The notes under the pieces: model-generated
The model's input: the letters and a program-made list of their open reading frames with translations, nothing else
Told to the model about the DNA's origin: nothing
Databases searched by the model: none
Program-made: the position numbers and the translations under genes
Shown: positions 11,792 through 43,104 of the stretch, piece by piece
How positions within the stretch are numbered: the stretch's first letter is position 1
Layout: every line of letters begins with the position of its first letter
Assembly (NCBI GenBank): GCA_034440075.1
Contig: JAWXBL010000005.1
Coordinates: 34,678 to 98,677 of the forward strand
Length of the DNA stretch: 64,000 nucleotides
Origin: Cytophagales bacterium
GTDB lineage: Bacteria; Bacteroidota; Bacteroidia; Cytophagales; Cyclobacteriaceae
Direction: 5' to 3'

Positions 11792-13216
11792 ATGGAAAAC
11801 ACCGAATTCCGCGCGCAGGCCCATCGCCTGGTGGACTGGATGGCCGACTACCTCGGGTCCATCAAGGAGTATCCTGTCAAGCCTTCGATACAACCGGGGG
11901 ATATCAAAAAACAACTGCCGACAGCGGCGCCATCTTCCGGGGAATCGTTCGACGATATCTTCAAGGATTTTAAGGATATCATCGTTCCCGGAATGACGCA
12001 CTGGCAGCATCCACAGTTTTATGCATACTTTCCTTCCGGGTCCAGCGAGCCGTCTATTCTGGCGGAAATGTTAGCTACCACACTGGGCGCCCAATGCATG
12101 ATCTGGCTGACCTCGCCGGCAGCCGAAGAGCTGGAGGAGCGGATGATGGAGTGGCTGCGCGAAGCGATTGGTTTGCCATCTGATTTTATCGGTGTCATTC
12201 AGGACAGCAGTTCTTCATCCAATCTTGTGGCGATGCTTACTGCCCGTGAATGGAAATCAAATTTTGAAATTAATAAAGCAGGATTTTCCGGAAAGGAAAA
12301 ATTCCGTGTTTACACGTCTGCTCAGGCTCACTCATCTGTTGATAAGGGTGTGCGCATTGCGGGATTTGGAATTGACAATCTTGTGAAGATTGACACCGAT
12401 GCTGACTATGCGTTGATTCCGGAATTGTTGGAGAACGCCATCCAGGAGGATATTAAGAATGGTTTTGTGCCACTTTGTGTTTTGTCTACAATCGGAACAA
12501 CCAGTTCCACTGCTAATGACCCCATAGAAGCCATAGCCATGATCTGCGGGAAGTATAGTTGCTGGCACCACATTGATGCGTCCTATTCCGGCAGCGCATT
12601 GTTGTTGCCGGAAATGCGTTGGATGAGCAAAGGGGTGGAGCTGGCTGACAGCTTCGTATTCAATCCGCACAAATGGATGTTCACCAATTTTGACTGTTCG
12701 GCATATTTTGTCAAGGATAAGCAGGCATTGGTAAATACGTTTAGCATTATGCCTGAATATCTTAAAACTCCCGAGGATAAGTTGGTCAACAATTATCGCG
12801 ACTGGGGAATACCGCTAGGTCGGAGATTCCGCGCTTTAAAACTATGGTTCGTGTTGAGGAGTTATGGAATAGCAGGATTGCAGCAGCGATTGCGTGATCA
12901 TATTTCGTATGGGCAATGGGTGAAGGATCAAGTGTTGAACGCATCTGGATATGAACTGATGGCGCCGGTGCCATTGAATCTGGTGTGCTTCCGGATTCAT
13001 CCGAAAGGTATCAGTGATGAAAGTGAGTTGGACAGGATCAATGCAGAATTGCTGCAGACTTTGAATGCAACCGGAAAGATTCTGCTTACACAAACCAGAT
13101 TGTCGGGTAAATTTGTAATTCGGTTTGTAGCGGGGCAAACACATGCTTCTATGGAGAGTGTTAAAGAGGGATGGACTATCGTAATGGAGTACGCAGATAG
13201 GTCTCTTCATGGTTGA
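11792..13216 (+). CDS. PLP-dependent aromatic-L-amino-acid decarboxylase (group II)
   Basis: PGMTHWQHP, HIDASY, SFVFNPHKW (PLP lysine) and LGRRFRALKLWFV. Confidence 0.9.
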   Translation: MENTEFRAQAHRLVDWMADYLGSIKEYPVKPSIQPGDIKKQLPTAAPSSGESFDDIFKDFKDIIVPGMTHWQHPQFYAYFPSGSSEPSILAEMLATTLGAQCMIWLTSPAAEELEERMMEWLREAIGLPSDFIGVIQDSSSSSNLVAMLTAREWKSNFEINKAGFSGKEKFRVYTSAQAHSSVDKGVRIAGFGIDNLVKIDTDADYALIPELLENAIQEDIKNGFVPLCVLSTIGTTSSTANDPIEAIAMICGKYSCWHHIDASYSGSALLLPEMRWMSKGVELADSFVFNPHKWMFTNFDCSAYFVKDKQALVNTFSIMPEYLKTPEDKLVNNYRDWGIPLGRRFRALKLWFVLRSYGIAGLQQRLRDHISYGQWVKDQVLNASGYELMAPVPLNLVCFRIHPKGISDESELDRINAELLQTLNATGKILLTQTRLSGKFVIRFVAGQTHASMESVKEGWTIVMEYADRSLHG

Positions 13217-21807: not shown

Positions 21808-22677
21808 TTATTTGTTGCGCTTTTGTTCCCTCACAGTTGGGGTAAGTTGAACCGCCTGAATAAAATCAATTGAGTTTGACACCCATCCAAATAGAGTTTG
21901 AATAGTTAAAAGTGAAGCTTGGTGATTACTTCGTGGAAAATTATTTCCAATCGGCTCAGCTGTACAATCTTCCAGAACTATTGGCAAGTAGTCCCTGAAC
22001 ATAGCGTCCCTTACGGTTGATTCTACACATATACTCGTTGTACATCCAGTAATTATAAGATACTTTTTGTTTAGTTGTTTTAGTGTTGAATCTAGATTTG
22101 TTTTATAAAAACCACTAAAGCGGGTTTTATAAATTACGATATCTCCTGGTTGCGGCTTAAGTTCAGGAATGATTTCAGTACCCCATGAGTCACGGATCAG
22201 GATGCGGCTTTCCGAGCCATCGGGAGCATTAATTGTATCTCCTACATGCATAAAATCTAGATGCCTTACACGGTTTACAGATTCTATACTTCCAATATCA
22301 GAAAGGTTATCACGAAAAGCCATCCTAAGATAAATTATTTCAATACCCGCTTGTCGGGCTGCTGCTATAACATTTGCAGTTGGGGTGACTACTTTTTGTA
22401 TCATTGAAATGTCGATGCCAGCTCTGTCAAACATACCACCCTTGGCACCAAAGTCATTCTCCATGTCTACAACAATAACGGCTGTACTTGAGGCATCAAT
22501 AGAAATTGAGTCAGGCTTAGCTTTTAAATGAATATTCTTTGAAGCATTGTTTTTAACCGCTGATAGTTTGCTGAAAGCAGTTGAATCAGTAATACTATTT
22601 TCTCTTTTTTCAGCATTGTATTTACAAGATGCAAAGAGCAACACCGTAATCAAAGTCTTATAAATGTACTTTTTCAT
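21808..22677 (-). CDS. Cysteine hydrolase (isochorismatase/RutB-like) with lipoprotein signal; cassette-like
   Basis: VVDMENDF, KTRFSGFY and TGCTTSICVESTVRDA; AT-rich. Confidence 0.88.
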   Translation of the reverse strand: MKKYIYKTLITVLLFASCKYNAEKRENSITDSTAFSKLSAVKNNASKNIHLKAKPDSISIDASSTAVIVVDMENDFGAKGGMFDRAGIDISMIQKVVTPTANVIAAARQAGIEIIYLRMAFRDNLSDIGSIESVNRVRHLDFMHVGDTINAPDGSESRILIRDSWGTEIIPELKPQPGDIVIYKTRFSGFYKTNLDSTLKQLNKKYLIITGCTTSICVESTVRDAMFRDYLPIVLEDCTAEPIGNNFPRSNHQASLLTIQTLFGWVSNSIDFIQAVQLTPTVREQKRNK

Positions 22678-22726: not shown

Positions 22727-22895
22727 TACCGCCAACGTCGGTGTGTGGGTAGTGGGAGGGCTTGCTAAATCCGCGAGGCGGATGGCAAGACCGACTATTC
22801 CGCAAGTTCCACGAACTTGCTTGCATTACGAAGATAACTATTTACTTTAACTGTCTATCACCAGCATGGCAGATATACTTGTGTGCTGGGCGGTT
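22727..22895 (-). repeat. attC-like long repeat, copy 1 (degenerate right arm)
   Basis: Begins taccgccaac. Shares the core gggagggcttgctaaatc...ggcaagaccgacta..c.gcaagttccacgaac...gaagataactattta with 38345-38514 and 40019-40195. Confidence 0.75.
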
Positions 22896-22960: not shown

Positions 22961-24241
22961 TCATTCATGTGTCAGCTTACCCCCTGAAGAATGAGGATCA
23001 CCTCTCCACCACAGCGGCGCTCCTGTCCACGTCAGGAGTACAAGTGTAAGCGTGTAAATAAAAAACGGTGAGTCCAGTATGTACATTTGGAGACTGTTGT
23101 TGCCTTCCGTGAGGGTAATCATTACCACAAGCCCGATCATGGCTGACTTGTTGCCTTGCCTGACAGGACCGTGCAAGAGCACCCAGGCTCCGATTCCAAC
23201 AGCCATTAATGTTGTGCCGAGTGCCCTCAGGAGTGCAAAATCCAGTCTCATCAAATTGCGGGATACCTCCTCTGCTCCCAGTTGCAAATACTTGATGTGA
23301 GCATTGGGCAGGGACGTGCTGCTGAATGTAAAAATCAAAAGCATCAGGCCGTCACAGAATACTGCAATTGCGACAATTTGCAATATCGTGTATCCCATTT
23401 TCCGGACAGGCATTCTCGCCACAATGGCCACGATCGCGATAAGGAATGCTGGCAATATTAGTTTGTGAATGGGGTATTGTTCCTGGTTCGAAAGATTGAT
23501 CATCTTCACAAAATTCGAGATGTAGTAACCGGCAATCAGCGCAAAGCCCACCACAAAAAAAATAAACTTGTAGTTGAGGCGGGAAAGAAAATTAGGCAAC
23601 TGTTCTGGGCGGGGAGTTGGTTTTGGGACTATGACCGGATTCTCAAAATTCTTCAGGCCCATCAGGATCTCCTTCACTCCATTGGCAACTTTATTGATCT
23701 GATCGCGATAGAAAGTCTTGTTGAGATTCTTCTCCGGATTATCGGATGGGGTGAGAGGGCGGTTTACTCCTGCCGTCCTGTAAATAAACTCGATTGACCG
23801 CAAGGCTCCCTCCAACTCATTTTCGAGAAGAACCAGATCTCCTGCATCCAGGTCATGAATCTTTATGGGTAAAATTCTACTCACCACATTTCCGCTATCC
23901 ACCCGTATGTCTCTGCCAAACTTATCTTCTTTTGACATTTTATTAAACATCAGAAATTCGTTTTCCCAGGCAAAACTCTTGCTATCACAATACGTCTGAG
24001 AGATGATGGGAATAAGGATAAGGCACTTTAATTTTCCCTCGAGGCTTTTGGCAACATGATGCGTTTCGAGCAAGCCATCGTGAGGATTCGTGTCGAAGTA
24101 AACAGAGACAGGTTCTTTGATAGTGGCTGCCAATTCCTCTTGTAAGGCTTTTACAAACTCCGTTACCCAGCCACTTCTATTATCGTTGTGACGGTAGGAG
24201 ATGAAGATGTCGCACTCGTATCCTTGAATTATTGAAGGCAT
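22961..24241 (-). CDS. TIR-domain protein fused to a multi-pass membrane domain
   Basis: DIFISYRH, LIPIISQTYC and AWENEF (candidate catalytic Glu); about five hydrophobic segments in the C-terminal half. Confidence 0.8.
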   Translation of the reverse strand: MPSIIQGYECDIFISYRHNDNRSGWVTEFVKALQEELAATIKEPVSVYFDTNPHDGLLETHHVAKSLEGKLKCLILIPIISQTYCDSKSFAWENEFLMFNKMSKEDKFGRDIRVDSGNVVSRILPIKIHDLDAGDLVLLENELEGALRSIEFIYRTAGVNRPLTPSDNPEKNLNKTFYRDQINKVANGVKEILMGLKNFENPVIVPKPTPRPEQLPNFLSRLNYKFIFFVVGFALIAGYYISNFVKMINLSNQEQYPIHKLILPAFLIAIVAIVARMPVRKMGYTILQIVAIAVFCDGLMLLIFTFSSTSLPNAHIKYLQLGAEEVSRNLMRLDFALLRALGTTLMAVGIGAWVLLHGPVRQGNKSAMIGLVVMITLTEGNNSLQMYILDSPFFIYTLTLVLLTWTGAPLWWRGDPHSSGGKLTHE

Positions 24242-36151: not shown

Positions 36152-36860
36152 CTAAGTTCAAGTAATAAGTGCAACGCAAAAGGTTAAAGGAAAGGAGGTT
36201 TCCCCCCTTTCAATTGACCAAGGTTTTGAAAACTTTGTGTTGCTTATGACGACAAACTATTCTCACCTTAGCCAAGAGCAAAGGTATCAAATTGAAGCCT
36301 TATTAAGGACAGGTAAGACCCAAGTTCAAATAGCTTCTTTAGTAGGCTGCCACAAGTCAACGGTGAGTCGAGAGTTGAGACGAAATGTTCCTCAACGGGG
36401 AATAGGAGCAAAGGAATACAAAGCTGTTAAGGCTCAATTAAAGACCTAGCTACGCCATCACCTCAAGGCCAAACATGAAAGGTTCACCCAGGATATGCGG
36501 AAGCAAATTGTTGAGTGGCTTACCGTGGAGAAGCTCAGTCCTGAGTTGATCTCTGTATTGGGGCGAGCACAAGACAATGATTTTGTCAGTCATGAAACCA
36601 TTTACACCTGGATATGGAGTATGAAGCATTCCCATCGAAAAGAAAATCGACCTTTTCAAGACCTGTATCAAGAACTCAGGCATGGAAGAAGACGCAGAAA
36701 ACGAGGCAATCGTCGCGATAATAGGGGTTGTATCCCCAACCGAATCTCTATTGAGAACCGACCGGCACTCGTTGAAAAGCGAGACCGTTTGGGGGACGTT
36801 GAAGTAAATTTAATGCTGGGTAAAAACCACCAGCCAGGATTACTGGTCATTATCGAGCCT
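36152..36860 (+). mobile_element. Decayed IS30-family element (left IR plus truncated transposase)
   Basis: HTH YSHLSQEQRYQIEAL...HKSTVSRELRRN, in-frame TAG at 36447-36449, VSHETIYTWI and ISIENRP. The first DDE Asp position reads N (GDVEVNL) and similarity ends near 36860. Candidate IR ctaagttcaagtaataagtgcaac at 36152-36175. Confidence 0.88.
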
Positions 36861-36871
36861 GTGCTATTAAA

Positions 36872-37708
36872 CTATTTCTTTGGGCTCCATTTCCCCATTA
36901 AGAATTCGGTCGAATGTTTTAAAAAGTCTGAATAGTTATTAGGGTCTAAATGTGGAACATGTCCGCCATTTGGAAAAATCCAGAGTCTGCTATTCGGTAT
37001 ATATTTTTTCATTTCTATTGCTTGGTCTAATGGAATAAAGTCATTGTCCCCCTGAACGATAAGCCACTGTGCTTTAATTGAATTCAACATGTCAGGCGAA
37101 AATGAAGGATCACCGTAGAAATTTCTAAAACGCCAAAACTGTCTTGCCTGTAACATCGCTTTCTCTTGGCCATGAATTTTAGATTGCTTGGATATGATAT
37201 CAGTCTTGGCACTGTCAGGTCCGTCTGAAGTAATCCAATCTCTCACCCGTTGGTCATAATAGATTTGCGCTCCAATTGTTATTACATTTTTAAATTTGTC
37301 AGGTTGCATGAAATTGGCGTAGAAAAGCGTAATTCCTCCGGAACTTGCCCCCATTGCATTCACTTGATTAATTTTTAAATAGTCCAGTAACGCAAGAATT
37401 ATTTTCGCATAGTCACTGTGTCTAAATTCCACGTCTCCCTTTTTATAGATGTCTGAACGTCCGTGGCCAATCATGTCAACGGAGATTACTCTAAATATTT
37501 TTGAGTAATCCTCAAAGTATGCTTTCCATTGGTCAGCTGTCCCATTGAATGTATGTAAAAGTAAGAGAGGCTCTCCTTGTCCAATGTCCTCATAATATAT
37601 TTTTGTTCCATTGTAATTAAAAAACTTTCCGGTTGAGGAAATTGGCAATTGTCCATTTGACCCAAAATAAATTAGGTAGAGTAGGACGAAGGTTATTATT
37701 TTTTTCAT
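36872..37708 (-). CDS. Secreted alpha/beta hydrolase; cassette-like
   Basis: LLLLHTF, DMIGHGRS, GASSGG, QGDND and GGHVPH; AT-rich. Confidence 0.85.
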   Translation of the reverse strand: MKKIITFVLLYLIYFGSNGQLPISSTGKFFNYNGTKIYYEDIGQGEPLLLLHTFNGTADQWKAYFEDYSKIFRVISVDMIGHGRSDIYKKGDVEFRHSDYAKIILALLDYLKINQVNAMGASSGGITLFYANFMQPDKFKNVITIGAQIYYDQRVRDWITSDGPDSAKTDIISKQSKIHGQEKAMLQARQFWRFRNFYGDPSFSPDMLNSIKAQWLIVQGDNDFIPLDQAIEMKKYIPNSRLWIFPNGGHVPHLDPNNYSDFLKHSTEFLMGKWSPKK

Positions 37709-37736
37709 ATCATTTAGGTTGGTTGTCGGTGGCATT

Positions 37737-37745
37737 GGCGCTAAC
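37737..37745 (-). repeat. Isolated R'-like core site (GTTAGCGCC) at the cassette start
   Basis: ggcgctaac on the + strand, 29 nt upstream of the ATG. Confidence 0.55.
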
Positions 37746-37886
37746 AAGCATTTCGACCTGACTCGTGATCCTTGATTGCCTTGACAATCTGGGTCTCTAT
37801 GAATTTTGTCTTTCTCATTGTTTATCCATTTAAAGTTGATAAATTTATTCCAACTATTAAATGGCCGAACTTCAGGGGAGCTTACA
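37746..37886 (-). mobile_element. IS3-family remnant (terminal IR plus OrfA N-terminus)
   Basis: Minus strand TGTAAGCTCCCCTGAAGTTCGGCC, then ATG at 37818 encoding MRKTKFIETQIVKAIKDHESGRN, cut at the GTT core site. Confidence 0.7.
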
Positions 37887-37903
37887 GCAGCTTCTTCACT
37901 CTT

Positions 37904-38290
37904 TTAACCCCTTGCTGAGCCGTCCGACTGCATGGCACAAACAAGATTACCTTCCGTATCCAAAAACTTTGTGATCCAGCCAACATATGGGATTGCAGTC
38001 TTCGGCATAAGTATTTGGCCGCCGTTGTTTTGGACTTTCTTAATTATGTCGTCAACGCTTTCAACTGTCACGGTGCATTCTAATCCTATTAACCTTTCTT
38101 TCACTGGAGAGTATGTCCTTGCTTGTAAAGCGCCGATTAGCTCTCCGTTTTCGGTTTGGTCAGCCTTTATTTGTAAAAAGTCAGTTGGTCCGTAGGATGT
38201 AAAGCCCCAATCAAATACTTGTCCGTAAAACTTCTTTGCCCTTTCAATATTGTCAATGTGAATTGCAAAGTGGGTCATTTTATTTTTCAT
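37904..38290 (-). CDS. VOC/glyoxalase family protein; cassette-like
   Basis: HFAIHIDNIERAKKFYGQVFDW, GGQILMPKTAIPYVG and DTEGN. Confidence 0.9.
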   Translation of the reverse strand: MKNKMTHFAIHIDNIERAKKFYGQVFDWGFTSYGPTDFLQIKADQTENGELIGALQARTYSPVKERLIGLECTVTVESVDDIIKKVQNNGGQILMPKTAIPYVGWITKFLDTEGNLVCAMQSDGSARG

Positions 38291-38344
38291 ATTGTCAGTT
38301 TTATTATTCAGACCGAAGCTGTCCGACGGTTTTGGCCACATTAC

Positions 38345-38514
38345 CCCCAACGTCGGTATAAATGTCCGTGGTGGGGGGAGAGGGAGGGCTTTCTAAATCT
38401 GCCAGCTGGCAAGACCGACTACTCTGCAAGTTCCACGAACAATTTCCGCAACCGAAGATAACTATTTATTTTGAGTGCGATCCCCACCATGATCCATAAT
38501 ACGTTGTTGTGTGC
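38345..38514 (-). repeat. attC-like long repeat, copy 2 (170 bp)
   Basis: ccccaac...gttgtgtgc, internal ggtgggg/ccccacc stem and the shared core. Confidence 0.82.
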
Positions 38515-38606
38515 TGTTGGCTTGTTGTTCAAAATACTAACCACCTTATCATGTAAAGGCTTGATTTTTAATTGCTAAGTGCTAGTTTTCCCTGTGGAAT
38601 TATACC

Positions 38607-39227
38607 TTAAGAATAACTTTCACTTGCATCAGCACGATCCATAAAGGTTAGGTCAATGCTAACCACGGCTGATACGAGTAACCAGAGAGTCGCTAAATCA
38701 GTATTCATGTCAACTGTTGTTGTCAGGAGATAGATCGAGCGCAAGGAGCCACTTCTAGTGACAATCTCTTTCTGTTTCTTTCTAGTCTCCTCTGAATCTC
38801 TAAGTACCTTTGCAAACACCTTATCAGCTTCATTCTTGAATTTGTAGTTAAATGTTCCCGACTCAATGATTATTTTTAAGATTAGTTTGTCATTGTCAGT
38901 CTTGAGATTGTATTTGTCTCCATCCACTCCAAGTAAATTTCTATGTAGAATACCTATGACATTGGCGTTTGCGTCCATAATATTTGTTCTAGATGCAAAC
39001 CAGGTAAATCCCTTACGGATTGTAAACAACTTAGTCCCAGCTTTTGAGATAAAGTCAAAAGAAAAGGAAGTTCCAGAAATATCTAAAAATCTGAATATCT
39101 TTTGACTAATCGTTGAGTTTTTTTCAACAGCGGTCATTATCACATCGTTTGAATCTCCATCCAGAATCTCAAACTCTCTATGAAATTTAAGCAAGTTTAA
39201 TTTTCTCGTAATTACATATGACCCCAT
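38607..39227 (-). CDS. LURP-one/scramblase-like protein; cassette-like
   Basis: LKFHREFEILD, LFTIRKGFTWFASR and LLVSAVVSID resemble the tubby C-like LURP1 fold. Confidence 0.6.
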   Translation of the reverse strand: MGSYVITRKLNLLKFHREFEILDGDSNDVIMTAVEKNSTISQKIFRFLDISGTSFSFDFISKAGTKLFTIRKGFTWFASRTNIMDANANVIGILHRNLLGVDGDKYNLKTDNDKLILKIIIESGTFNYKFKNEADKVFAKVLRDSEETRKKQKEIVTRSGSLRSIYLLTTTVDMNTDLATLWLLVSAVVSIDLTFMDRADASESYS

Positions 39228-39322
39228 ATTGTGTATCCGTTACAAATGAGTGATTTTCGAAAACTGTACAGTGCACATTGATGCTGTTCACTAGTTGATC
39301 AGGTCAATTAAAATCTCACTGG

Positions 39323-39331
39323 GCACTCAAC
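39323..39331 (-). repeat. Isolated R'-like core site (GTTGAGTGC)
   Basis: gcactcaac on +, 7 nt from the P460 stop. 8/9 match to the cassette's own end site GCACACAAC (38506-38514, minus strand). Confidence 0.5.
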
Positions 39332-39338
39332 CGGGTCT

Positions 39339-39845
39339 TCAGTGCAGATCAAACGTGCGCACCAGGTCGCGGTTGGGGGAGGTGCTGTGGCAGCTCACGC
39401 ATCCCGAGCCCTTCGACTTGACCGAAACCACCACCCCGCCGGATGGATTGTATTCTGCCCAAAGCCAGCCGCTCCCCGCATTGGAATTTGCCGGGTCTTT
39501 TTTCATGACCGCATACAGCGTAATCCCCGATCCGCCTTGTATGTCTTTTACCAGGACGGACCCCGTGGGGAACGAATTTCCGGGTGGAAGTTCACCCGTG
39601 CCGTCAAGCACAGCCGCTGCCGTGGCATTGAAACGAAGTTTGAAATTACCATGAGGACCCATGCCCGTCAGCGTGTTGCCGCCCTGGTAAAACGTGTAGC
39701 CCGACGCCGTCGTTTCTGCAAACAGCGCGGCATCCGGATCCGGCGCGGACGACATGCTGGTCTCCCTGGAACATGAGTAGATCAGAATGACCAGCGCGCC
39801 GATGGCGCTCAGCCTGCCTATTTCTCTTGCCGCATCGATCTTCAT
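39339..39845 (-). CDS. Cytochrome P460 family lipoprotein
   Basis: Lipobox (IYSC), FPTGSVLVKD, AVMKK, GWLWAEY and the C-terminal heme motif CVSCH. Confidence 0.8.
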   Translation of the reverse strand: MKIDAAREIGRLSAIGALVILIYSCSRETSMSSAPDPDAALFAETTASGYTFYQGGNTLTGMGPHGNFKLRFNATAAAVLDGTGELPPGNSFPTGSVLVKDIQGGSGITLYAVMKKDPANSNAGSGWLWAEYNPSGGVVVSVKSKGSGCVSCHSTSPNRDLVRTFDLH

Positions 39846-40018
39846 AAGAAACGTTTACTCAATGATAATCAAAAAATGCCAATGCAGCAGCAAGGCACGA
39901 CAACATCAACTTCAATCAGTGTTGGTTGTTGTGGTTCATTAGTCAACGAGTCCAGCATTTTTGGCCGTCTCTTTGAACTCAACTCCTAATTTGTCCAACT
40001 CTTCGGAGTCGAGGCATT

Positions 40019-40195
40019 GCGCACAACGTCAGTGTATTTGTCCGAAGTGGGAAGTAGGAGGGCTTGCTAAATCCGCCAGTTGGCGGATGGCAAGGCCGAC
40101 TACTCTGCAAGTTCCACGAACTTGGTTGCATTACGAAGATAACTATTTACTTCAACTGTGAATCCCCAGCATGGCATATACACTTTGTTGTGTGC
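40019..40195 (-). repeat. attC-like long repeat, copy 3 (177 bp)
   Basis: gcgcacaac-gtca-gtgtat ... atacac-ttt-gttgtgtgc; the HepT stop codon is 7 nt away. Confidence 0.88.
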
Positions 40196-40202
40196 AGTGC
40201 CC

Positions 40203-40535
40203 TTAGCTGAGTAGAGATTTAATCTCTTTTTCGAGGTCAGGTAAATTTTTGATTATTATCCCCCAAAGAATATCCGCTGACACTGAGTCATAGCCGTGTA
40301 TGATCCTGTTTCTTGTGTCAACTATTTTTCTTGTGTGGCTAATCTTTATTTTAGGATCAATTGCCAAAATGCGACTCATTGCCTCTCCAATGATTTCTAC
40401 ATTGCGTTCAACAGCTCTACGAGTTTTCAGATCCTTTTGAAATTCTTTGAAGTCCTTGATTTCAGGAATGAATGATTTTATTTCAGCAATGGCTTGATCA
40501 ATGTCCTTAAGCCAGGTCTTGATATTATTGTCCAT
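40203..40535 (-). CDS. HepT-like HEPN RNase toxin (DUF86)
   Basis: AVERNVEIIGEA and RNRIIHGYD (RxxxxH plus Tyr). Confidence 0.92.
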   Translation of the reverse strand: MDNNIKTWLKDIDQAIAEIKSFIPEIKDFKEFQKDLKTRRAVERNVEIIGEAMSRILAIDPKIKISHTRKIVDTRNRIIHGYDSVSADILWGIIIKNLPDLEKEIKSLLS

Positions 40536-40827
40536 AGATTAGGACTTTTGACTTGTCTATACTCTGCCTGAGGAAGGGATTTTTGATTGCCCTATTCTCC
40601 AGGAGGTCAATAGATCGGTCCAATATCTTTTCAAGTGCAAATTTGAGCTGGAAATAATTATCAGAGTACTCAAAAGGGTCGCTTGTTTGAAAATCAACCA
40701 TCAGGTCCACGTCACTAGTCTTTGTAAATTGTGTCGTATTAACCGAGCCAAAAGAGTAGAGACTCTTTACCTTGTGATTCTCGCAAAGCCTTAGAATTTG
40801 CTCTTTATAAGTTTCAATTATTCCCAT
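40525..40827 (-). CDS. MntA-like minimal nucleotidyltransferase antitoxin
   Basis: FGSVNTTQFTKTSDVDL (GSx10DxD); overlaps the toxin start. Confidence 0.92.
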   Translation of the reverse strand: MGIIETYKEQILRLCENHKVKSLYSFGSVNTTQFTKTSDVDLMVDFQTSDPFEYSDNYFQLKFALEKILDRSIDLLENRAIKNPFLRQSIDKSKVLIYGQ

Positions 40828-40871
40828 GATGCAAATTTAGCTAATTTTTACTCTAATCTTTGCCGGGCATT

Positions 40872-40959
40872 GCACACAACGTTTGTGTATAAGGCGTTTG
40901 CCTTACCAAAATAGAAATAAACAAAGGAAGGCAAATGACTTATACACTTTGTTGTGCGC
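40872..40959 (-). repeat. attC-like site (88 bp hairpin)
   Basis: gcacacaac / gttgtgcgc ends, with perfect inner pairs gtgtataag/cttatacac and tttgcctt/aaggcaaa. Confidence 0.88.
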
Positions 40960-40973
40960 TGGTTGATTAGTCC

Positions 40974-41462
40974 TCACTTTTTAGTCAGTTGTTTTAAAAT
41001 TCTTTTTGTCAAGTCGTCAGTCAATGGAGAAATCGCATCTTCTTCCTTGTCAACTGATATGTTTAAAGTCGTGTCAATTCTTTTGTCCGTCTTTGGCTCA
41101 ATTTGCTGAAATGTCACTCGATTACAAAGCGGTATTTTTGCACCAAGGGTTTCTAGTTTGACGTATGCGGGCGTTAATAATGACAATTTTATCTTTAAGG
41201 TTTTCTTATCGCTACTGGTTGACGTAATGTCCGTTACAACACACTCAAGGCCATTTGAATTGAGTTGACCAGATAATTGAGAGGCAATTTTGTCAAGAAA
41301 CTCTTTTCCTTCTTTTGATTTAACTGTGTCAATAGTCAAAATGATTTTGTCAGCCTGGATACTGAAATGTTTCCACGGTTTATAATAATAGTATTTCTGT
41401 CCGAAAGAATTGATGGAGAGTCCAAATAGTAAAACTGTAATTAATATTCTTGTCACTCTCAT
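40974..41462 (-). CDS. Secreted hypothetical protein; cassette-like
   Basis: Signal peptide MRVTRILITVLLFGLSINSFGQ; AT-rich; bounded by att-like sites. Confidence 0.7.
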   Translation of the reverse strand: MRVTRILITVLLFGLSINSFGQKYYYYKPWKHFSIQADKIILTIDTVKSKEGKEFLDKIASQLSGQLNSNGLECVVTDITSTSSDKKTLKIKLSLLTPAYVKLETLGAKIPLCNRVTFQQIEPKTDKRIDTTLNISVDKEEDAISPLTDDLTKRILKQLTKK

Positions 41463-41491
41463 TGTCTTGTGTTGTCTCGTCTTATCAACTT

Positions 41492-41500
41492 GCGCACAAC
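41492..41500 (-). repeat. R'-like core site (GTTGTGCGC) marking the first cassette start
   Basis: gcgcacaac on +. A weak partner cttgtgcgg at 41571-41579 gives the same 88-bp span as the previous site. Confidence 0.65.
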
Positions 41501-41619
41501 AACCGTGCATACGCTAAATTGCGTCTACACATCTGCAGCAGACGAATATACGGAATTGCATATATAGGCTCTTGTGCGGATGTTGCCTCCACGGCACCAT
41601 TCCGCGCCGCGCAAAGGAC

Positions 41620-43104
41620 CTAGTACTTTGCTGGCTCGCCCTTCTTTGGCGTTGTCTTTAAGATAAACTGGCGTATATCTTCGTTGGCGGTAACCAAATC
41701 CTCCGCACGCAAATACATCATGTGCCCGCTGCGGTAGCCTTTGAAACTAAAGCGATCTTTCATCTTGCCGCTCGGATCAATCTGCCACATGGTGTATTTT
41801 GCATTGAAGTATTGCGTGGCTCCGTCGTAGTAGCCCGACTGGAACATCACGTTCAGGTACGGGTTTTCTGCCATCGCCAGGCGGAGATTTTTTCCGGTGT
41901 TGTCTCCATCGCGGTTCCAGGGATTGACGGGGCCAAACATGTTGTACTTGATGTCTGTTTTGTACTTCAGCACTTCACGCAGGTAGTAGTTGATGGCCGG
42001 CGTAAAGGAGTGGAGCCACGAGGTGAGCTCTGAATTGTAATCGGGAGACACGCCTGCTTCCTTGGCGTCGATGCCCTTGTACCGGGAATCCAGACGGCCG
42101 ATGGTGTAGCCGCCTTTTTCCCGCAGCAGCTCTTTCCAGAAAAACTGTGCAGGAACATCCAGGTTGTGCTGCAAAATGATTTTCTCTGACATACCGGAGT
42201 ACCGGGCCATCTTAGCCGCAAGTTCTTTGCGCTTCTGATCCGTGATGAACCCGCCGCGGGAAAGTCCGGGGATCAATTCATTCAATGTAAATTCTTCGAC
42301 TTCGGGCAACAAATCCGTAAGGTCCTTAGCCTGTAGATCCGGAGGAAGCATCTTATGATACCATGCTGCAGCAGCAAAATATGGAACGTTCAGCGCTGCA
42401 TCCACCGGGCCGCCGCGCTCAATACCCAGATCGGTTGGCGATACCAAAATCACGCCGTTGAGATACATCCAGTGGGAATTTTGAAGCTCAAGGGCCAGAC
42501 CCGATACGCGCGTGGTGCCGTAGCTTTCGCCGATGAGGTACTTGGCCGACGTCCACCGGTTCTTGCGTGTAACAAAATTGTTGAGCCACTCGGCGAGGTA
42601 CTTGATGTCGGCATTCACACCGAAGAACTTTTCTTTGGGAGTGTCCTTGATCAGGATCCTCGAATAGCCGGTATTTACCGGATTAACATAAACAATATCG
42701 GCAACATCCAGGATGGAATACGGATTCTCCTTGATGCCGTAAGGCTGAACCGGATATCCCTCAGGGTCGATTTCAAGAATGCGTGGACCCGTATAGGCGA
42801 TGTGCATCCATACGGAGGCGGAACCAGGACCTCCATTGAATGAGATCACCAGCGGCCGCGCGGAGCGATTGGTAACATCGGTCCGCTCATAGTACGTATA
42901 CTCAAGCGCTGCAATGGCCTTTCCGTCCTCATCCCAAACGGGCTGCGTGCCGGTGACTACCGAGTAAGGAAACTTTTTGCCTTTTACGGTCACTTCTCCT
43001 GTAGTCGTGATGGTGGAGTCGGCGGCAAGCTTACGGGTTTTCTGGGCGACGGCGGGAGCGATTCCCAGCGCGAGGCAAAGGAGGAGGGAAAGGAGTGTTT
43101 TCAT
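41620..43104 (-). CDS. S10 family serine carboxypeptidase
   Basis: FNGGPGSAS, IGESYG, GYYDGAT and SGHMMY. Confidence 0.9.
   Translation of the reverse strand: MKTLLSLLLCLALGIAPAVAQKTRKLAADSTITTTGEVTVKGKKFPYSVVTGTQPVWDEDGKAIAALEYTYYERTDVTNRSARPLVISFNGGPGSASVWMHIAYTGPRILEIDPEGYPVQPYGIKENPYSILDVADIVYVNPVNTGYSRILIKDTPKEKFFGVNADIKYLAEWLNNFVTRKNRWTSAKYLIGESYGTTRVSGLALELQNSHWMYLNGVILVSPTDLGIERGGPVDAALNVPYFAAAAWYHKMLPPDLQAKDLTDLLPEVEEFTLNELIPGLSRGGFITDQKRKELAAKMARYSGMSEKIILQHNLDVPAQFFWKELLREKGGYTIGRLDSRYKGIDAKEAGVSPDYNSELTSWLHSFTPAINYYLREVLKYKTDIKYNMFGPVNPWNRDGDNTGKNLRLAMAENPYLNVMFQSGYYDGATQYFNAKYTMWQIDPSGKMKDRFSFKGYRSGHMMYLRAEDLVTANEDIRQFILKTTPKKGEPAKY

Follow-up and report, generated by a model that had tools for sequence, protein, structure and literature searches.

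Within the window, the whole 64-kb stretch of DNA analysed here, all genes between 36.9 and 41.5 kb lie on the minus strand, and we read the region in that direction. It holds three complete hairpin sites between genes, one short (40959 to 40872, 84 nt) and two long (40195 to 40019, ~173 nt, and 38514 to 38343, ~168 nt), together with two isolated GTT starts. The parts of each hairpin site follow the same order: an R'' box ending in CAAC comes first and is separated by 3-5 unpaired bases from the L'' arm; after the loop and the L' arm, a further 4-6 unpaired bases lead to an R' box (GTTG...). We treat the region as an array of cassettes, each of which would begin with the TT of one GTT and finish with the G of the following one.

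The array opens with an attI-like head (41501-41566), in which two copies of a GCAAT..CGTAT motif are followed by cggtt and by the G (41500) of the first G|TT. Cassette 1 (40880-41499, 620 nt) encodes a secreted hypothetical protein (ORF 40974-41462) and ends in its own short attC, with R'' at 40951-40959, an outer arm reaching 40970, the L hairpin and a G at 40880. Cassette 2 (40027-40879, 853 nt) encodes an MntA antitoxin (40525-40827) and a HepT toxin (40203-40535), named from Pfam and NCBIfam matches; the R'' of its long attC (~173 nt) lies at 40187-40195, with an outer arm to 40202 and the G at 40027. Cassette 3 (38351-40026) is an irregular unit that carries a cytochrome P460-like gene (39339-39845, Pfam match) and a 206-aa ORF (38607-39227), and its terminal long attC (38351-38514) belongs to the long repeat family described below. 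A VOC/glyoxalase cassette follows (37745-38350, ORF 37904-38350), with an IS3 OrfA remnant (~37750-37830) in place of its attC. The remnant breaks off at the next GTT (G at 37745), a break at GTTAGCGCC that was read directly from the sequence. The last unit is an alpha/beta-hydrolase cassette (36872-37744), which is interrupted on its 3' side by the remnant of an IS30-type transposase on the plus strand (~36230-36860). All cassettes and attC sites above lie on the minus strand.

The array has a G+C content of 40.9%, compared with 50.2% for the genome. The P460-like gene stands out at ~60% G+C, against 40% for the rest of the array. Remnants of IS30-type transposases lie against attC sites or interrupt them in two separate arrays, the one in the window (36230-36860) and one on contig C11 (1-330), and an IS110-family gene precedes a cassette on contig L107; insertion sequences seem to target attC sites.

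An outlying long attC of the same family lies on the minus strand at 22728-22886, between a TIR-membrane gene (22961-24241) and an isochorismatase unit (21808-22677). With the attC at 40019-40195 it shares 88% identity; the R' reads GTTGGCGGT, with the G at 22736, and the R'' is degenerate (CACAAG). The long attC (~175 nt) forms a repeat family of eight copies in this genome, at 75-93% identity, which include copies at the start of contig C11 and on contig C39. A search for this DNA did not find it in the two same-genus genomes sampled and found it in only 2 of 150 other genomes of the family. Searching the genome by regular expression for R''/R' pairs returned only two known sites. Half-site profiles run with nhmmer were more useful, but they are weak on such short motifs.

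A decarboxylase gene (11792-13216) and an S10 peptidase gene (41620-43104) flank a larger segment of the window. In three relatives (G306, G175 and G262) these two genes are convergent neighbours ~100-200 nt apart, whereas here ~28.4 kb (13217-41619) separates them, containing a CHAT/TPR pair, the isochorismatase and TIR units, a heme operon and the cassette array. From this comparison the segment is a variable island, and the array therefore lies at one end of an island of ~28 kb.

No recombinase gene is present within the 64-kb window. A CALIN consists of at least two attC sites in a row with no integrase nearby, and this is what the window array contains.

Complementarity of cassette ends

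The initial annotation had held that the start and end of each cassette match each other better than do the two arms that face each other at a junction, and had taken this for the signature of circular excision. The strings on which it relied are all present where it placed them. The start of the hypothetical unit (cassette 1) matches the reverse complement of its own end at 17/20, and its junction arms match at 8/20. For the MntA/HepT unit the corresponding figures are 15/16 and 13/16, and 15 compared with 14 when 20 nt are counted. This unit is barely discriminating alone, since the cassette that follows also has, by coincidence, a start of the GCAATGCC type; taken singly, it is weak evidence that would not carry the claim.

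The isochorismatase unit had been described as following the same pattern (8/10). The match itself is real, but it is marginal and the site is decayed: its R'' has GCT instead of GTT, no hairpin follows, and the chance of such a match in the ~100 nt searched is ~0.04 by our estimate. An unprompted inverted-repeat search recovered the arms of the other two units, at 40949-40970/41481-41502 (22 nt, 86% complementary) and at 40187-40202/40865-40880 (16 nt, 94% complementary).

Both ends can be seen in six cassettes of this genome, of which the window has two, C11 one and C39 three. Over the first 20 nt from the G, we scored each start against the reverse complement of its own R''. Own ends scored 15-17/20 and all non-own combinations 5-12/20, and the true pairing was the unique best of the 720 permutations, which gives the smallest p value possible in this test. 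Own and junction scores were 15 and 7 for the first cassette on C39, and 17 and 8 for the second. When the sites were folded with RNA parameters, the hairpin of the circle form was more stable than that of the array form in 9/9 cassettes, by 4-25 kcal/mol (12.6 kcal/mol for cassette 1). The circle junctions proposed in the initial annotation, 40027 to 40879 and 40880 to 41499, coincide exactly with the G|TT prediction.

Two rival readings bear on these matches. The sites could be MITE-like or REP-like elements, inserted between genes with terminal inverted repeats of their own, so that matching cassette ends would reflect only a shared consensus. That the ~175-nt element is an eight-copy repeat family fits this reading, as does the MntA/HepT unit, whose junction arms match almost as well as its own ends. 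However, the arms of a MITE should match each other, and here the junction arms match at 7-8/20 in four of five junctions, whereas own arms lying 550-2400 nt apart across a gene match at 15-17/20. Identical cassettes, including the whole hairpin, also move as one unit (see below), and Rfam returned no family match to the sites, only spurious miRNA matches. We regard MITE-like or REP-like elements as very improbable. The end matches could also be products of chance or of biased hand-picking; the arms were first chosen by eye, and the ~4% chance expectation of the isochorismatase match (an estimate) points the same way. The permutation, shuffle and shift controls contradict this reading, and we give it next to no credence.

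We then extended the comparison to 28 cassettes, 23 of them independent, from this genome, its relatives and metagenomes. The 23 independent cassettes had a summed own-end score of 270/391, and the maximum reached in 200,000 random pairings was 196. A register shift of only 1-3 nt reduced identity from 0.78 to 0.24-0.30. In this larger sample R'' was located by its best match to the start, which inflates the agreement at positions 1-14 reported next and leaves the position-11 rule, the register-shift control and the shuffle tests unaffected. Comparison of each start with the reverse complement of its R'' showed agreement in 28/28 cassettes at positions 1-8, in 27/28 at position 9 and in 23/28 at position 10. 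Positions 12-14 agreed in 23-25 of the 28, and agreement faded past positions 15-17.

All four bases occur at positions 4-9, where start and end are almost perfectly concordant, and the 23 independent cassettes contain 21 different 10-mers. The agreement is therefore covariation and not a shared consensus. Across positions 4-10, own ends paired at 6.8 of 7 positions compared with 3.5 of 7 at array junctions (n = 17). Position 11 behaved differently from its neighbours and never agreed: the start was always A, and the end was G in 25 cassettes and T in 3 (n = 28). At this position the bottom strand has a G.T wobble where the top strand has an A.C mismatch, a strand asymmetry that, as we read it, would fit single-strand recombination.

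Predicted folds contain an outer stem, the R box, an unpaired spacer of 2-3 nt and an L stem with an internal mismatch. Judged on this anatomy, an imperfect palindrome of the form R''-L''...L'-R' with unpaired spacers at the 3' end of a cassette, the sites can be classed as attC sites. The short attC that follows HepT on L089 differs from that on L084 by paired changes in both L-stem arms (cttcATg...cATgaag and cttcGCg...cGTgaag); such changes are compensatory evidence for the hairpin.

Cassette 3 is an exception to the own-end rule. Its start (it spans 40026-38351) matches its R'' arm at 8/9 in the core, with no match beyond when compared by eye, and it is probably a fusion of two cassettes. 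A possible start of a LURP cassette within it, at 39323-39331, was rejected: it matches the R'' at 38506 in the core only (8/9) and lacks the position-11 A, and the unit was treated as a fusion.

Breakpoints at G|TT in other contexts

The initial annotation had proposed that these units were assembled by site-specific recombination at G|TT, and had suggested looking for the same units in other genomes. They were found there in differing neighbourhoods, and the comparison supports the proposal: orthologues occur in different surroundings, and sequence similarity ends at G|TT. Relatives of MntA, with 71-81% identity, are present in ~18 MAGs, most of them named as Cyclobacteriaceae or related Cytophagales groups. 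Had the units always occurred together and in the same order, the idea of independent movement would have failed. Instead, the two units never occurred together in 68 MntA loci and 8 hypothetical-gene loci, nor did any of these loci contain a further gene belonging to the window array.

Among MntA/HepT orthologues with both ends visible, the R box differs and the cassette's own R'' changes along with it in a compensatory manner. The R box/R'' pairs are GTTGTGTGC with GCACACAAC in the window, GTTGTGCAC with GTGCACAAC in L030 and GTTATGCAC with GTGCATAAC in L034. Contigs encoding one identical HepT protein, 88% identical to that of the window, have three upstream contexts, which diverge at G|TT.

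The orthologue of cassette 1 gives a closely bounded case. It has 80% protein identity and forms a 659-nt unit, TT to G, that is at least 99.4% identical on five metagenome contigs. These contigs provide three upstream and three downstream contexts in four combinations, and immediately outside G|TT, on either side, their identity is 17-30 of 60 positions (28-50%). One attC 3' end, taken from an upstream context, leads after its G into six different cassette starts, five of them on further contigs found by a 31-nt exact match to it. These breakpoints place the crossover between the G and TT of R', so that the mobile units run TT...G, as is required of integron cassettes. When metagenome contigs were searched for an exact copy of the circle junction expected for the 659-nt cassette, none was found; such contigs are assemblies, which drop rare forms.

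Hairpin interiors follow a different rule from R arms. On contig L088, which encodes the same HepT protein, the attC interior is a different one from the end of R'' onwards, something that a pure G|TT model would not predict. Orthologous cassettes generally keep the R'' arm and not the hairpin interior, and this combination of a kept arm with a changed interior is likewise unexplained by such a model. The interiors of orthologous cassettes can be unrelated, with lengths of 58, 84, 130 and ~170 nt (L084-L089 compared with L088; window 40872-40959 compared with L102:645-775), and unrelated cassettes within one genome share one interior. The pattern suggests that attC interiors are homogenised or exchanged separately from the R arms.

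A Xer-type recombinase and attI-like sites

No IntI was found in this genome, which has a completeness score of 100% in 52 contigs. The best scores against the integron integrase model TIGR02249 were 194 and 205 bits, below the cut-off of 265, and both matches are split in two stretches that skip model positions 180-237, the part containing the IntI-specific insertion. A strict integron encodes an IntI with the IntI-specific additional domain, and this genome does not. It encodes two Xer-like proteins, at C15:836-1876 and C12:737-1885, that are 43% identical to each other and contain only Phage_integrase and SAM-like domains; the C12 protein is classed as Xer-like by NCBIfam and Pfam. Aligned with the true IntIs of two relatives, both proteins show two gaps that together amount to ~43 residues, and they have ~105 additional residues at the N terminus.

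The intact C12 recombinase gene is followed by an arrangement resembling the head of an array, with an attI-like region at C12:655-735. About 60 nt past its stop codon lies a small repeat or palindrome (gcgtatat...), and then G|TTGTGGGTAATGCCGCC, where TTGTGGGTAATGCCGCC is the start of a lipoprotein-like cassette that matches its own R'' at 17/18. Contig C12 ends inside the attC of this first cassette, and no other contig of the assembly continues it. Of 200 genomes sampled from the family, ~45 have full-length homologues of the C12 recombinase (46-66% identity), which frequently lie at the end of a contig. Around 24 of the 29 homologue loci that were fetched from other genomes have a short hairpin within 40-90 nt of the stop codon and then GTT followed by variable sequence. 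At 14 homologue loci an R'' of the first cassette, with the first 9-10 bases repeated, lies 300-1050 nt downstream. The second Xer-type recombinase, on C15 (1-1876), lies beside a fragment, at the start of the contig, that represents the PLD-like N-terminal part of a larger gene; no clear G|TT site comes after the recombinase.

The window head (41501-41566) aligns with the region after the stop codon of the Xer-type recombinase, both on C12 and in two relatives, and the block common to all is GCAAT.CGTATATT. The genome has just five copies of the attI-like motif, among them those of the C12 attI-like site and the window head. Further copies of the motif, GCAATGCGTATAT, are found on contigs C7 (85675) and C49 (9974); six nucleotides past the C7 copy, GTTACCGGCAACCC looks like another cassette start without a recombinase. 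Upstream of the window head there is no recombinase gene; the S10 peptidase gene has its stop at 41620. By this alignment, the window array has kept an attI-like head, with the S10 peptidase gene standing where a recombinase would be expected.

These observations bear on the possibility that the array is an ordinary CALIN, in which classical integron cassettes have outlived an IntI that was lost or left unassembled and the Xer-type recombinase is an unrelated neighbour. The site architecture (R''-spacer-L''...L'-spacer-R', with a G|TT crossover) is indeed that of attC, the assembly is in 52 contigs, and true IntI genes scoring over the TIGR02249 cut-off are present in 3 of 150 sampled genomes of the same family. 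Against this, the genome that scores as 100% complete contains no IntI, and the succession of Xer-type recombinase, hairpin, G|TT and a cassette with the own-end signature is found both here and at most homologous loci. The resemblance of the window head to the attI-like region after the Xer-type recombinase also argues against an unrelated neighbour. Near the three true IntI genes, half-site profiles (within 19 kb) and a crude hairpin scan found no such arrays; the scan is insensitive, having missed 2/3 sites in a control on the window, and this negative result is weak. Overall, we consider an ordinary CALIN improbable.

One genome with a true intI, G120, also has a Xer-type recombinase, on another contig, and its IntI gene is immediately followed by a hairpin whose ends are AAC and GTT (L025 13738-13849). 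The IntI and Xer-type systems may coexist in one genome.

A probable integron-like system with split sites

We conclude that the minus-strand region at 36.9-41.5 kb is very probably an array of mobile gene cassettes belonging to a Bacteroidota integron-like system that uses a Xer-type tyrosine recombinase, with sites that are whole only in the circle. This conclusion builds on the observed own-end complementarity, on covariation, and on the G|TT breakpoints of identical cassettes in different contexts. We further infer a circular intermediate, a C12-type recombinase as the enzyme and the folded bottom strand as its substrate. The proposal in the initial annotation of assembly by recombination at G|TT holds in that the cassettes are bounded there; the system is not a strict integron, as there is no IntI and the Xer-type enzyme lacks the IntI insertion.

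Under the proposed arrangement, each cassette would carry its own hairpin site at its 3' end (R'', unpaired spacer, L''...L', spacer and G). Insertion at G|TT would have split this site, leaving the 3' half of its outer stem at the 5' end of the cassette: TT, ~7 variable bases, the A that is invariant at position 11, and some further bases. The complete stem would thus re-form only when the cassette ends are joined in a circle, and every array junction would be a composite of two unrelated site halves. Composite junctions, with the site complete only in the circle, would explain why own ends match and junction arms do not. No recombinase gene is left at the window array, so it would either depend on the C12 copy in trans or now be static.

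More tentatively, these sites may be built differently from classical attC, in that the R box spans 10 bp and is specific to the cassette, the pair at position 11 is obligatory and the outer stem is short, all of which would be complete only in the circle; they may act as a ratchet in which position 11 selects the strand. Circles would be good substrates for capture at attI, half-mismatched array sites would be poor substrates for excision, and accumulation of cassettes would be favoured. The position-11 asymmetry would then take the strand-selection role played in integrons by extrahelical bases together with the IntI-specific domain.

Much of this logic is familiar from integrons, where a cassette begins at the first T of R' and ends at the G of the following R', and attC is whole only in the circle (PMC2674596). 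The split-attC rule is already known there, and as a statement about integrons our observation is ordinary. As in integrons, the cassettes here consist of short genes without promoters, in many cases toxin-antitoxin pairs, and behind each lies an imperfect palindrome that has R and L boxes and an unpaired spacer; the crossover point is G|TT in R', and the cassette's attC is whole only in the circle. The attC sites are also homogeneous within one genome, like the VCRs of Vibrio. Integrons have been reported in Bacteroidota, though seldom as complete elements.

The differences concern both enzyme and site. IntI is absent, and the associated recombinase lacks the ~43-residue IntI insertion and has a ~105-residue N-terminal extension. 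The IntI-specific domain is regarded as enabling integron integrases to recombine folded attC hairpins. The Xer-type recombinase is co-oriented with the cassettes, and the attI-like site comes after its stop codon. Integrons of the Treponema denticola type, which have an inverted integrase gene, likewise transcribe the recombinase towards the attachment site and the array, but theirs is a true IntI with the additional domain, whereas the system here lacks one. Unlike the R box of integron attC, that of the present sites has 10 bp rather than 7; beyond it come position 11, where an invariant A faces C (or A), and 3-6 more pairs. The R box is also so variable between cassettes that array junctions are only about half paired.

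The closest published description, by layout and with the C12 protein known as Xer-like from NCBIfam and Pfam, is rAID-1 (recombinase-associated acquired interbacterial defence), the arrays of orphan immunity genes of gut Bacteroidales (Ross et al. 2019, bioRxiv 10.1101/471110). There, a 5' XerD-family tyrosine recombinase precedes co-directional short low-GC genes with intergenic repeats "reminiscent of integrons" (bioRxiv 10.1101/471110). Assignment to rAID-1 calls for a XerD-like recombinase with >44% identity to BF9343_RS08045 and at least two co-directional downstream genes with a G+C content of at most 41% and repetitive intergenic sequences. The window array has a G+C content of 40.9%, co-directional genes and repeats, but no recombinase adjacent; C12 has the recombinase, but there the contig stops within the attC of the first cassette. 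The closest relatives of this genome are of Cytophagales type, and its cassettes contain a toxin-antitoxin pair, VOC, hydrolase and unknown genes. The rAID-1 descriptions considered here contain nothing on the crossover point, on hairpin structure or on circles.

The same cassette logic, of G|TT crossover, split site and shuffled neighbours, is thus tied here to a Xer-type recombinase without the IntI domain. Own-end covariation gives a rAID-1-like system a defined crossover, exact cassette boundaries and a testable site model, comprising a 10-bp R box and the position-11 asymmetry. This model would allow such cassettes to be annotated in Bacteroidota.
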